From: Candidatus Latescibacterota bacterium
GTDB lineage: Bacteria > Latescibacterota > UBA2968
NCBI GenBank assembly: GCA_965222605.1
Contig: OZ244960.1
Span: 896,001 to 960,000 of the forward strand
Direction of reading: 5' to 3'
DNA length: 64,000 nt
The notes under the pieces are model-generated. The model ran no database searches and had not been told where the DNA came from. It saw only the letters and a program-made list of their open reading frames with translations. The position numbers and the translations under genes are program-made. How positions within the stretch are numbered: the first letter of the stretch is position 1; every line of letters begins with the position of its first letter. Shown piece after piece: positions 53,324 to 58,083 of the stretch.

Positions 53324-54766
53324 ATGCGCTCATTTTTATTTTTTTTTCCTTTGTGTGTCTTTGTCTTTTTGTTTTGCACCCCCAAAGACGCGCATACCTC
53401 AACTTCGGTGACGCACACTGACAGTCTTTACAAACACGATCCCTACGATATATCGCAAGCCAGAGTTACCGACAGTACGGATGTCTATGTTACAAAAGCT
53501 TCAAAAGTGAAATATCTCTTGCGATCCCCCCGGTATATCTTGCTAACGATGATCTCTCCTTTGGAGAAATTCGCTATTCAAGTAGAGTATGCCAAACTAT
53601 GGGTTCGCTACTATAAATTTTTCACCAATAAAACGGGTACATTTGGTCTTTTCCCGCACGGGCAATTGGGAGGGGAAACGGGTACAGGGGTCGGGGTGCG
53701 TCTTTTTTACACCAATATCCTGGGGCGTAAGAACGCATTGACTGCACACTATATCTATTCGGGCGAGCAGGGGCAATTTTGCGAAGGTCTGTATATTGAT
53801 CCCAATCTATTGGACACGGGGCTTATTTGGGAAATTCAGGGTGGATATTTGCAAACCAAAAATAGAAATGCCAATATAAACGGCGCAATAGATGACGAAT
53901 CGAGGCTTTTTGAACTCAAAAAAGTTGATGTTGAGACCTCTGTTGAATGGCGTTTGAAAACGAATGAGATCGCATCTTTTGCGCCGCAGTTTAAAATAGT
54001 GGGCAGGCTCGGGTTTTCGCAGCGCGATTTTATGCCTGTATTGGGTGGATTGCAGCCGCTTTCCGACCCGGGATCATCACCACAGGCTCGTCTGCTTAAG
54101 AGGTTGGGCACAAAATTCAAATTTTATCGCTTTGGACTTCAGGTGATGTATGATGACCGCGATTATAAAAAACCAGTTCGCCAGCTTTCTCATCCACCCA
54201 ATTATCGATTTCCAGGCAGGATAGTTACACAATTTGGAGATCAGTTTTATTTTGCAAGAGATATTGGATATCCCGAACGCGGTGGATTTACTACCTTAGA
54301 AAGTGACTGGGTGACAGGTCCTGATCGCATTGCGTTCTACAAGATACGCGCAGAAGCTGCCCGTTATATCACGCTGTTCTGGAAGAACCGAATTCTGGTT
54401 CTGCACGCACGGATGGATAAAATGCGGTCAATTGGGGATGGATTTGTCCCTTATACCGAGTTGATTCAATTGGGTGGCAATGAATCGGCGCGCGGATACA
54501 CACGCGGTTATTTTCGCGGACAGGGAGCATTGCAATTTAATGTGGAGTACCGATATCCAATATGGGATTATTCGAATGTGTTTTTATTTTGGGATGAAGG
54601 GCAAATTTTCGACCATTTTGGCGATTTGAGGTGGGGAGGGTTCCATTCTTCGTGGGGCGGTGGCATTGCATTTCGAACGGAGGTCAATTTGCTCGGCAAA
54701 ATCAAAATTGGGCATAGTACTGCCGAGTGCTTCCTCATCGGATTTACGATGAGTCAGGCATTTTAG
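53324..54766 (+). CDS. Omp85/BamA-TamA family barrel protein without obvious POTRA
   Basis: LGGNESARGYTRGYFRG (loop-6 RGY motif), FNVEYRYPI, FWDEGQIF, SWGGGIAF, terminal F. Confidence 0.85.
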   Translation: MRSFLFFFPLCVFVFLFCTPKDAHTSTSVTHTDSLYKHDPYDISQARVTDSTDVYVTKASKVKYLLRSPRYILLTMISPLEKFAIQVEYAKLWVRYYKFFTNKTGTFGLFPHGQLGGETGTGVGVRLFYTNILGRKNALTAHYIYSGEQGQFCEGLYIDPNLLDTGLIWEIQGGYLQTKNRNANINGAIDDESRLFELKKVDVETSVEWRLKTNEIASFAPQFKIVGRLGFSQRDFMPVLGGLQPLSDPGSSPQARLLKRLGTKFKFYRFGLQVMYDDRDYKKPVRQLSHPPNYRFPGRIVTQFGDQFYFARDIGYPERGGFTTLESDWVTGPDRIAFYKIRAEAARYITLFWKNRILVLHARMDKMRSIGDGFVPYTELIQLGGNESARGYTRGYFRGQGALQFNVEYRYPIWDYSNVFLFWDEGQIFDHFGDLRWGGFHSSWGGGIAFRTEVNLLGKIKIGHSTAECFLIGFTMSQAF

Positions 54767-56085
54767 AAGACGCGGGGAAGACATTCTTTATGAAAAAGGA
54801 TTTAAATAAATTGTGGGTATGGGTGCTTATGGCCTGTGTTGCTGCCGAGGTTGAAGCGATCGACCGCCATTTATCAACTGCGCCAATCAAGTGGTTTGAT
54901 CCCGATAATCGCAGTGTTGCTCAACCCAAAGTAATTAAAAGGAATCTGATATGGGACATGGTCGATCACTCTTTTGTTTATCCAATGACTAAGAAACTGG
55001 ATTTGGGATGGAGTGCGCGGCGGGTCGGAAATATTCTGAATATTGCGCCAACTCGTCAGGCAGATAATATCAATGTGCTGGATGAAGTACCCAATTCATC
55101 GTGGTACACGAATCGGCATTTTCTTGTGCGGATGGATGCAGTGGTATTGGCCAAAGGGCCGGGGCACGCGCATCCAGATACGAGCGGTTCATGGGAGATT
55201 ATATCGGGAAATTTTGAGAGCCAGGCGCCTGAGTTTACAATTCAGGACGCAAAAGAGGATGTTTATTTTTTGAAGTTTGATACCAAAGGTTATGAGGAAC
55301 TGGCGACAACTGCCGAGGTTGTATCGACAAAAATTCTGTATGCCGCGGGCTATCACGTACCGCAAAATTCCGTTGTTTTTTTTCGGCCAGAGTGGCTTAC
55401 CATCGGTTCTGAGGCGGAGGTGGTTGATGGTGAGGGAAGGCGCAGGTCCATGACAGATGCAGACTTGCAAAATATACTGTCTTCTATTGAAAAGCAAGCT
55501 AAGGGGCATATCCGGTGCCTGGCAAGCAAGAGATTAACGGGTATTCCTCTCGGTGTTTTTGATTTTCACGGTCGGCGGAAAGACGATCCCAATGATCGCG
55601 TGAAACACCAGCATCGGAGGGAGTTACGAGGGTTGCGAGCGATCTCTTCGTGGATCAATGATGTAGATAGACGTGCAGCCAACACCCTGAATATGTTTGT
55701 GACTGATGAACAGGGACGTCAATATATCAAACATTATTTGATCAATATGGACGCGACTTTGGGTAGTAGTTCGGTGCGGCCTCACACGCCCAGGTCAGGA
55801 AATGAGTATTTTGTCGATTTTCGCTATATTGTTCCATCAGTTTTGGGTCTGGGGCTGTATCGAAAGGCGTGGGAAGATGCAAAGCCCATACATTTTCCAT
55901 CAATTGGTTATTTGGAGAGCGATGTATTTTCGCCCAGACGGTGGGTTACCAATTATCCCAATCCGGCTTTTCAGCGGTGATTGCTATAATAAAGGGTAAA
56001 GAAAAAAGTTGAGTAAACAGGCCATAGTTGCCAAATTCGAAGATTGCAAAAAAACCATTTAATTATCTTCTTCGAGGAGGCAACC

Positions 56086-57354
56086 ATGGCCAAGCATCAC
56101 AAGCAAATCGAGTATGTAGAACCCAACACCTTGATCGTTGGCATTGATATCGGTAAATCGGTTCACTTCGTCAAGATGATGTTAGAAGGCAGGCAGATCG
56201 CCGCATTCAAACTCTACAATGAAGGTATGTCCTTTATGTCATTGCTCGACAAAATCCGACAGGTTGAAAAGCACCATCAGTGTGCGGCAACCCTGATTGG
56301 TATGGAACCTACTGGACATTATTGGTTGCCGTTGGCCTACTTTCTGCGGGCTCATAAACAGCCCTTCGTCCTGATTCAGCCTTCCCATGTGCGCTGGTCG
56401 AAAGAGATGGGGGACAACAGTCCCTTAAAAACAGACGACAAGGATGCTGGTGTCATCGCTGAACTGGTACGCCAGGGCAAGTCTCACAGGGCCTATCTGC
56501 CTGAAGGGGTCTATGCCGATTTGCGTGCCTTGACAGCGATGCGCTATGAAAAGAAAGATCAAATCACAGCGGCTAAAAACGTGCTTCATCGTATCCTGGA
56601 TGTCCTCTTTCCTGAGTTTGTGTCCCTCTTCAGCGATATAACAGGCAAAACCGCACAACAGATCCTCAACGTAGCACCTACGCCTTTGCAGATACAAGCC
56701 CTTGGCATTGATGAACTTACTCTCCTGATCCAAAAGGCATCAAATCGTCGCCTCTCCAAAGCCAAAGCACAGGCCGTCCTTGAAGCGGCTTCCACCTCCA
56801 TTGGCGTGAACCAGGCCATAGACAGTATCTGCCTCGAACTGATGCAAACCCTCTGCTTAATGGATCTGCTTAAAACCCAACTGCAAGAAATCGAAACCCA
56901 AATGAACGAACACCTACAACATATACCCCAAGCAGGATATATGTGCTCAATCCCTGGACTGGGACCAATCAGTGTGGCATCTATACTCGGCGAAACAGGC
57001 CCCTTTGAGGCTTATCAAGCACCTGAACAACTCATCAAACTGGCTGGCTTAAACCTCTTTGAAATCTCTTCAGGATATAAAAAGGGCACACGAAGAATCG
57101 CCAAAAGGGGACGCGCAAGACTTAGACGCATCCTCTATACAGCGGTCTTTCCTCTCATCTTCCATAATCCCATCTTCAAGGAGGCCTATCACCGATTTAA
57201 AGGGGCAGGAAAACCCACACAAAAAGCCATTATTGCCCTTTGCTCTAAACTCTTACGCATCCTCTTCGCGCTGGTCAATAAACAAGAAACTTTCAACATA
57301 AACTGCAACACCAAAAAGGAAAAGGTAGTATCTCAAGTAAAAAAAGCAGCTTAA
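56086..57354 (+). CDS. IS110 family DEDD transposase/recombinase
   Basis: GIDIGK, GMEPTG, KTDDKDA (DEDD); SIPGLG, AGL..ISSG (catalytic Ser motif), GRARLRRILY; RBS GAGGAGG. Confidence 0.95.
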   Translation: MAKHHKQIEYVEPNTLIVGIDIGKSVHFVKMMLEGRQIAAFKLYNEGMSFMSLLDKIRQVEKHHQCAATLIGMEPTGHYWLPLAYFLRAHKQPFVLIQPSHVRWSKEMGDNSPLKTDDKDAGVIAELVRQGKSHRAYLPEGVYADLRALTAMRYEKKDQITAAKNVLHRILDVLFPEFVSLFSDITGKTAQQILNVAPTPLQIQALGIDELTLLIQKASNRRLSKAKAQAVLEAASTSIGVNQAIDSICLELMQTLCLMDLLKTQLQEIETQMNEHLQHIPQAGYMCSIPGLGPISVASILGETGPFEAYQAPEQLIKLAGLNLFEISSGYKKGTRRIAKRGRARLRRILYTAVFPLIFHNPIFKEAYHRFKGAGKPTQKAIIALCSKLLRILFALVNKQETFNINCNTKKEKVVSQVKKAA

Positions 57355-57545
57355 GCTCCTGGGATGAGCAGGATAGAACGAAGTTGTACATACGGGCTTT
57401 GACCCTGAAGCGGTGACCTATTCGCCTGCCTTCTCAGGAGCTTGAATGAAGCAATTTAAGGGCACTGACCCTGAATGACATACCTGTGTAAAGCCCTGAG
57501 ATATATCTGGCAGGAATACCTGCTCGCGCTCGAATTTGGCACTTT
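57355..57545 (+). ncRNA. putative bridge/seek RNA of the IS110-family element
   Basis: Contains TTGTACA (57384-90) and AGCGGTG (57409-15), matching both strands of the actual target, and AGCAAT (57450-55) and ATACCTG (57480-86), matching the donor junction. Two GGG-N6-CCCTGAA hairpins; closing stem GAGCAGG/CCTGCTC. Transcript ends unknown. Confidence 0.78.
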
Positions 57546-58083
57546 TTCTACTTGACTTTCTTATACCTGTACAAATCGCGATGGGTACTGGGGGGCAAAA
57601 ATTGCAATGGCGTTTAGCGATGCGGATTTGGCAGCTATTGTGAAAATAGGGCATTTGAGTGACAAGAAGGCTGAAGAGAGACTCATTCAACTTTTGATTG
57701 CACGCCGCGATAAGGTGGGCGATTACTGGTTTCGACGCATAAATCCGCTGGATCGCTTTTGGATTGACAGACGAGGATTGCATTTTGAGGATCTGGCGAT
57801 TGTGGGAAATCTGGCTGCTGAAGCAGAGACCCGGTATTTTTATCAATTTTTGAGTCGCGATGGAAAGGCGCAGGGTGCTGTGCGTCAACTCGATACGTCA
57901 GGGCACATACCCATACCACGCGATTTGCCGGATGGACAATATTACGGGATAGAGATTCGGACCATGAGGTCCGGATGGGCAGATAAGTACGTTCGGGTTT
58001 ATTTTTTTGTTTGGAATGTCGGGCTATATCAGATTGTACGGGTTGATCGGCAGGAGTAGTTTCAATCAAAGGCCGGGAATCAA

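Follow-up and report, generated by a model that had tools for sequence, protein, structure and literature searches.

The window analysed here is a stretch of 64,000 nucleotides (nt) from a Candidatus Latescibacterota bacterium (assembly GCA_965222605.1, contig OZ244960.1, forward-strand positions 896,001 to 960,000), and it holds an insertion sequence of the IS110 family that has split a host gene. The element consists of a left non-coding end of 106 nt, a gene for a recombinase of 422 amino acids (aa) and a right non-coding end of 215 nt, in which a structured RNA with four guide segments is predicted (Table 1). It is very probably an active IS110-family element of IS1111-type layout, with a guide RNA of about 170 nt encoded just after the gene. 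The recombinase gene is preceded immediately by GAGGAGG. The reading frame of the host gene runs on over the restored insertion site, and a Pfam search with the host gene matched no family.

Table 1. Positions in the window of the element, its flanking target halves and the segments of its predicted RNA
Feature	Position	Strand	Remarks
Host gene split by the element	54727-58059	+	Parts: 417 aa to 55979, 162 aa from about 57570
Left target half and core, AGCGG-TG	55973-55979	+	Identical in 11/11 loci with the window's guide type; equals RNA 57409-57415
Insertion sequence, 1590 base pairs (bp), TG-bounded	55980-57569	+	Border ambiguous by the 2-nt TG core
TATAAT, -10 half of predicted junction promoter	55985-55990	+	Sequence reading; kept in relatives
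Left subterminal inverted repeat, TGCCAAATTCGA	56029-56040	+	12/12 complementary to 57530-57541
Recombinase gene, 422 aa	56086-57354	+	ATG 56086, stop 57352-4
Structured core of predicted bridge/seek RNA	57365-57526	+	Model R1
Stem P1	57365-72 with 57519-26	+	Encloses target arm and P2-P3 donor arm
Predicted target guide 1, 9 nt, AGTTGTACA	57382-57390	+	Reverse complement TGTACAACT is the flank of 9/11 type-A loci
Target-loop hairpin, GGGCTTTGACCC	57394-57405	+	3 modelled pairs, 100% of cells paired in family
Predicted target guide 2, AGCGGTG	57409-57415	+	Letters of left target and core; would pair with bottom strand
5' strands of P2 (57425-30) and P3 (57432-38, 57440-43)	57425-57443	+	Partners 57509-14 and 57491-57501
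Predicted donor guide 1, AGCAAT	57450-57455	+	Would pair with left end ATTGCT
Donor-loop hairpin, AGGGCACTGACCCT	57459-57472	+	Contains GGGCACTGACCC at 57460-57471; helix 7, 95% paired
Predicted donor guide 2, ATACCTG	57480-57486	+	Letters of right end and core
Right subterminal inverted repeat, TCGAATTTGGCA	57530-57541	+	Partner of 56029-56040
TTGACT, -35 half of predicted junction promoter	57552-57557	+	Sequence reading; kept in relatives
Right end and core, ATACC-TG	57563-57569	+	
Right target half, TACAA	57570-57574	+	Seen in copies, empty sites and genus loci

Borders, copies and insertion site

TG is found at 55978-9 and again at 57568-9, and removal in silico of 55980-57569 leaves an open frame across the junction, whose sequence is that of the uninterrupted gene in sister genomes, i.e. 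...ttcagcggtg followed by TACAAATCGCG (L168, L169 and L170). The host gene is uninterrupted in three genomes of the same genus (G006, G007 and G009) and occupied at the same site in a fourth, G004. A contig of run X15 passes directly from 55977 to 57568 and so lacks 1590 bases, with an ambiguity of 2 nt; bins without cover over 57388-57521 in runs X15 and X17 carry no information. The window's own genome (G000) has, besides one 94-nt right-end fragment, four complete copies, of which three show 100% and the fourth 99% identity; all four retain an intact 422-aa open reading frame (ORF), and each has ...AGCGGTG on its left and TACAA... on its right. Each junction, and likewise each empty site, has one TG only, hence no target duplication. 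Because the copies, the empty sites and the X15 contig agree, the element is a 1590-bp unit inserted at TG without duplication. The original prediction, made from the letters of the window, had described a complete element with a TG core, the target AGCGG-TG-TACAA, the donor junction ATACC-TG-ATTGCT and a non-coding end of about 215 nt, and had held that excision restores the target; these claims stand, since the frame reopens, the sister genomes read the same and 215 nt are counted after the stop codon.

Guide segments and fold of the predicted RNA

Sequence and covariation suggest that the right end, beyond the recombinase gene, encodes a non-coding RNA whose loops can pair with either strand of target and of donor. 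The segments and hairpins named in the original prediction (TTGTACA at 57384-57390, AGCGGTG, AGCAAT and ATACCTG) are all where it placed them, except that the first target guide extends to the 9 nt of AGTTGTACA, its usual site being TGTACAACT. The order that it proposed also holds, with the segment complementary to the top strand preceding that complementary to the bottom strand, as in IS1111-type seekRNAs, and the fold of the family described below bears out the placing of the guides around sister hairpins in two loops.

Comparison of the element with its relatives in the genus bears directly on these guides. The collection comprised 15 distinct Latescibacterota loci with full elements, three of the 18 rows collected being duplicates, and the element's own guides match its site at 14 of 14 positions in 12 of the 15 and at 13 of 14 in the remaining three. 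Copies with the same guides share the target, and guides co-vary with it: all 11 loci of the window's guide type (type A) are inserted in AGCGG-TG-TACAA, while L175 and L181 have the guides ATGAACA and ATCTGTG instead of TTGTACA and AGCGGTG and lie within a tandem 10-mer at the sites ATCTG-TG-TTCAT and ATCTG-TG-TTTAT. L086, with the guides ATAAACA and ATCTGTG, occupies ATCTG-TG-TCTAT, and in L174 the guide AACGGTG stands against the site AGCGGTG. Four guide positions differ between types A and B, and the target differs at all four as pairing predicts. In the RNA alignment the target guides fall in columns 1-90, where the variable columns are mostly within or beside these guides; further variable columns lie downstream, in stems and in the right end. 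The reprogrammed relatives (L175, which is the same as L007, L181, L086, L183 and L187) insert in the tandem 10-mer TTCATCTGCG and its variants, not in the repeat used in the window's genome.

Matches of single guides are common by chance (5-27% each), and for this reason the weight rests on the joint pattern together with the covariation in relatives. Joint matching of all four guides at the observed length or more had a rate of 0.0001 when the 175-nt RNA region was shuffled 20,000 times, and of 0.0002 in 20,000 random genome windows. A broader comparison covered 41 loci of the wider family, excluding five Latescibacterota rows, with ends called automatically from the donor guides, a noisy procedure that yields many false ends in single-copy loci and was used only with a permutation control. 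The target loop of a locus matched the predicted flanks of that locus over at least 7 nt in 14 of the 41 loci (permuted guides: mean 3.3, maximum 8) and over at least 9 nt in eight (permuted mean 0.5).

The type-A target is abundant in the window's genome, where the 12-mer AGCGGTGTACAA has 24 unoccupied occurrences against 0.75 expected. Most of these are the head of a repeat resembling repeated extragenic palindromes (REP-like), which consists of GGTGTACAAC, a variable stem-loop and GTTCA, and whose 10-nt head occurs 67 times, sometimes in inverted pairs. The repeat is found genome-wide (e.g. G000:C1:4211262 and 484308) with compensated changes in its stem-loop, and the window itself holds half-sites only. 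The 24 REP-like copies beginning with AGC are targets that the element could use as they stand.

The DNA of target guide 2 is itself a copy of the left half-site and core. Solo right-end remnants that are informative (L005, at G000:C1:6101679-6101773; L183, in G026; L187, in G002) all three begin within 2 nt of target guide 2, at about element position 1434; L005 carries a second deletion, between two TGACAT repeats, and L183 has one extra TG. A deletion from the flank to the copy within the guide would remove the gene and leave such remnants.

Evidence on the donor side comes from farther afield. In Bacillota relatives the ends were mapped by comparing copies within a genome, giving a left border ...AG/(C)CATTCC and a right end ...GGGAG, and their RNAs read GGAATG and (AT)GGGAG where the window has AGCAAT and ATACCTG; their second target guide (e.g. 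AAAGGAG or GGGCAG) equals their own left flank. Donor guidance draws only on these distant relatives, because the ends and donor guides never vary among the Latescibacterota elements. A second ATACCTG, at 57516, lies in a stem and is not kept in relatives. The Bacillota loci (L028, L033, L057, L063, L079 and others) have an AG core and are inserted after an AAAGGAG-like sequence resembling a Shine-Dalgarno site, which the right end ...GGGAG would replace. Their right flanks are unconserved and their first target guide is either short or without a match (in L079 it is only "AA"), and consequently targeting in this group may rest on the left half alone.

The fold was derived from RNAalifold of five sequences, which gave a nested structure with compensatory changes in two long-range stems, and from this a covariance model (R1) was built with the guide segments kept unpaired. 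In the target arm a short stem is followed by guide 1, a hairpin and guide 2, and in the donor arm P2 and P3 are likewise followed by guide 1, a hairpin and guide 2, so that the four guide segments sit in two internal loops. R1 finds exactly four matches in its own genome, one per copy. The 96 loci searched in relatives of 34-41% protein identity yield 77 matches (E up to 1) and 60 further loci yield 22 (E up to 0.01), all on the gene strand and downstream of the gene. In an alignment of 72 sequences, 63 of them distinct, pairing extends to 92% of cells, compared with 62% when shuffled and 37-50% when slid; helices 4-6, which make up P2 and P3, are 90-94% paired, with a double change in P2 of L008. 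Compensatory changes occur at 36 of 36 modelled pairs and covariation backs all seven helices, although fitting the alignment to the model biases these counts in favour of R1. A search of Rfam over 55900-57700 found no family, only two chance matches at E 2.3 and 8.3. With filters off, R1 found nothing above 14 bits, and no match beside a transposase gene, in 70 kb around six other IS110-family genes, those of ISBth13, an Enterococcus element, ISSep2, ISBth166, ISEc32 and IS4321. Three tandem RNA matches in L069 adjoin runs of N in a draft scaffold and were taken as an assembly effect.

As a direct repeat of 19 nt, the two hairpin units are 84% identical. The suggestion in the original prediction that the two loops were duplicated from one unit is plausible, and the similarity of the hairpins recurs in Bacillota, but shared protein binding explains it equally well. 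A competing structure was also considered. A perfect 10-bp helix between 57355-64 and 57432-41 would compete with P3 and delimit an RNA of 87 nt with the target arm alone; it is intact in five of five Latescibacterota sequences, with one change from G-U to A-U. As a fold of the whole family it was rejected, since in the wider family 51% of cells are paired, compared with 46% after shuffling and 46-49% after a slide of 1-2 columns, and P3 was retained because the helix is not conserved there. The 10-bp helix could be a lineage-specific switch, possibly tied to the short and long RNA forms of other elements.

Proposed mechanism and alternatives

The features above suggest the following course of events, in which expression and processing of the RNA, its binding to the protein, the circle and the chemistry would be as in IS621, ISCro4 and ISEc11. 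The RNA would form two arms held by a common stem, and an internal loop round a GGGC...GACCC hairpin in each arm would carry two guides, with AGCAAT of the donor arm pairing with the left end ATTGCT. The element would leave as a circle joined through one TG, and the joint would build a promoter, TTGACT-17-TATAAT, from which both gene and RNA could be transcribed; when the ends are joined through a single TG, the spacer between the two hexamers amounts to 12 + 5 = 17 nt. Recombination of the circle with a matching site would then take place at the TG and duplicate nothing. An RNA-library contig of 458 nt, 100% identical to the window, spans 57107-57564, from the 3' end of the gene through the whole RNA; it fits co-transcription of gene and RNA but is no proof of it, since contigs of such libraries may stem from DNA and carry neither ends nor strand.

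Several observations, this uncertain origin of the contig among them, weigh against the proposal. In the linear copy a promoter scan of the + strand found no sigma-70-like site. A fold of the single sequence is no better than those of shuffled sequences (z = -1.44), so that of the folding proposed in the original prediction the single-sequence part was uninformative, whereas the comparative fold is conserved with covariation; there the fitting of the alignment to R1 has to be allowed for. One guide-target mismatch is found in three of the 15 genus loci, and in the window copy and L180, which share one orthologous site, guide 1 is matched at only seven of nine positions. On the donor side, ends and guides are invariant across the Latescibacterota set, and donor guide 1 has only 6 nt, reaching the core by a U-G wobble that is followed by a mismatch.

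The donor-side points lend themselves to a different, though unlikely, explanation, in which only the target arm is RNA-guided, in the narrow seekRNA sense, while the protein reads the ends through the 12-bp subterminal repeats, and AGCAAT and ATACCTG are not guides at all. It would account for the lack of close-range covariation in the donor-arm segments and for the perfect 12-bp subterminal inverted repeat; matches as short as that of AGCAAT are common by chance (about 0.25-0.27), and Siddiquee et al. suggest that a different end recognition is possible in the IS1111 type (PMC11187229). It does not account for the Bacillota relatives, in which the segments at the donor-guide positions correspond to independently mapped ends, nor for the donor arm (P2, P3 and hairpin), which is conserved and covaries as much as the target arm; moreover, Durrant et al. 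describe donor-binding nucleotides in IS1111 RNAs (PMC11208160).

It is still less likely that the element is a silent relic whose copies spread by duplication or gene conversion and not by recent RNA-guided transposition. The site common to the window's genome and G004 fits vertical inheritance, and expression and circles of the element are postulated by analogy, but the three identical copies have unrelated flanks and intact ORFs, the site is polymorphic in the genus (three empty sites), G004 carries seven copies, and contig loose ends in three runs show more left flanks, which diverge just upstream of the half-site. It is highly improbable that the protein chooses its target by recognising the hairpin of the REP-like repeat, the RNA matches being a coincidence, for although most insertions are at the head of the repeat GGTGTACAAC-stem-loop-stem-GTTCA, the window copy and its counterpart in G004 lie inside a coding gene without the hairpin and have only AGCGGTG-TACAA in common with the other sites, relatives with altered guides use a different repeat, and the joint chance of the four guide matches is about 1e-4.

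The recombinase and comparison with known systems

The recombinase matches PF01548 over residues 18-176 (1.4e-29) and PF02371 over residues 286-369 (7.2e-20), and it scores 226 bits on NCBIfam NF033542 (IS110 family RNA-guided transposase). It has the N-terminal RuvC-like DEDD and the C-terminal Tnp Ser-Gly features of the broad IS110 family. D21, E74, D117, D120, S329 and G330 are invariant in an alignment of 17 protein sequences (A1), and in one of 28 (A2) all of these are invariant but D21, which is nearly so (90% or more); the DEDD and Ser positions align with the motifs of ISCro4 and IS621. The C-terminal Ser-Gly motif reads GLNLFEISSG, with Leu where the published motif, G(L)-P----SG, has Pro. 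Among proteins of solved structure a sequence search found only ISCro4 (1.6e-10) and IS621 (3.9e-07), and an AlphaFold model of the recombinase (predicted local distance difference test 81, predicted template modelling score 0.71) matches both over the whole chain with template modelling (TM) scores of 0.69-0.71 (target-normalised). The next structural matches are proteins of the box C/D ribonucleoprotein Nop5/Nop56/58 type and TIGR-Tas proteins (TM 0.35-0.62, target-normalised).

Judged by sequence the recombinase falls in a clade of its own of about 420 aa, close neither to IS4321 nor to IS621. The nearest named protein is ISBth13 (178 bits by BLASTP, full length, 30% identity), whereas IS4321, the sole IS1111-group reference compared, aligns only over 145 C-terminal residues, with 45 bits, and IS621 and ISCro4 give 33 and 44 bits. 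A 16-row protein tree that included six named references has long branches and gave no clear placement at depth. The IS1111 label of the original prediction holds for the layout, whereas the protein may or may not belong to that group, and the 422-aa length to which it drew attention, though correct, is normal for a large clade of relatives of about 415-425 aa and no peculiarity of the window copy.

Descriptions of bridge RNAs and seekRNAs date from 2024 (PMC11208160, PMC11187229). The IS1111 type is characterised by a downstream RNA in which the top-strand match comes first, by subterminal repeats, by natural reprogramming and by a junction promoter (PMC11187229), and the window element has subterminal repeats of 12 bp, within the usual 7-17 bp, a longer right end that holds the RNA, and the same guide order, so that its layout agrees with this type in each feature tested. 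It thus resembles the seekRNA elements ISEc11, ISPa11 and ISKpn4, as these are described, in RNA position, subterminal repeats, absence of duplication, guide order, natural reprogramming among relatives and a promoter from joined ends, here predicted. It differs from the IS1111 family in having 422 aa where 330-350 aa are reported (PMC11187229); and from IS4321 in that its protein is no closer to that element than to IS621 and ISCro4, and in that R1 has no match beside IS4321.

The layout of the IS110 group, as exemplified by IS621, is not that of the window element, whose RNA is downstream and whose guide order is reversed with respect to the rule given in PMC11208160; the IS621 RNA is located in the left end (PMC11208160). 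Likenesses to IS621 and ISCro4 (PMC11208160; PDB 8wt6 and 9t56) are found instead in the whole-chain fold, the two-loop RNA, the four guides overlapping a 2-nt core and the DEDD/Ser residues. Unlike these two, as they are reported, the window element has its RNA in the right end, a TG core and not CT, about 80 extra helical residues (at about 176-236, between two long coiled-coil helices), a common stem round both arms, and one donor guide that covers the core incompletely.

The Pseudomonas elements ISPpu9 and ISPpu10 (PMC12288879) likewise insert in a repeated extragenic palindrome and have stand-alone RNA-bearing ends elsewhere in the genome, but host phylum, target sequence and RNA are different. 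According to that report ISPpu9 can transpose without its Ssr9 RNA and does not form a hybrid promoter, whereas a consensus hybrid promoter is predicted for the window element. ISBth13 (so named in the annotation of plasmid NZ_CP083120.1) is similar in size (397 aa) and, as noted, is related over its full length; it differs in a longer intergenic space upstream of the gene (437 vs 123 nt, which are intergenic distances and not mapped ends) and in that R1 finds no RNA there. A literature search on ISBth13 gave one unrelated preprint only.

Members of the IS110 family whose non-coding region lies downstream are mentioned by Siddiquee et al. (PMC11187229), and the clade of the window element may be such a group; the supplementary lists published with PMC11208160 and PMC11187229 may already include members of it. 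It is a tentative and rather doubtful idea that the recombinases of about 420 aa are a third, uncharacterised lineage of bridge recombinases, with an RNA family of their own (two arms in one stem, no Rfam entry), an RNA moved to the right end independently, and guide-2 DNA that may act as a pseudo-site repeatedly deleting the gene. If there is such a lineage, the independent move would follow from the combination of an IS1111-like layout with a protein that is nearer to long IS110-type enzymes with upstream non-coding space.

Systems of this kind became known in 2024, and the current picture of how such elements work is unchanged. What is gained is a fully decoded case of natural RNA-guided recombination in an uncultivated phylum, the nearest named records being Latescibacterota metagenome-assembled genomes, in which genomes alone yield the borders, target, donor, four guides and RNA fold, and in which close relatives form a natural reprogramming series (AGCGG-TG-TACAA vs ATCTG-TG-TTCAT). 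The wider RNA family, with many enzymes of about 420 aa in Bacillota and metagenomes, TG or AG cores and varied targets, is a candidate pool for engineering as well as a test case for the evolution of RNA position and guide order between the IS110 and IS1111 types.

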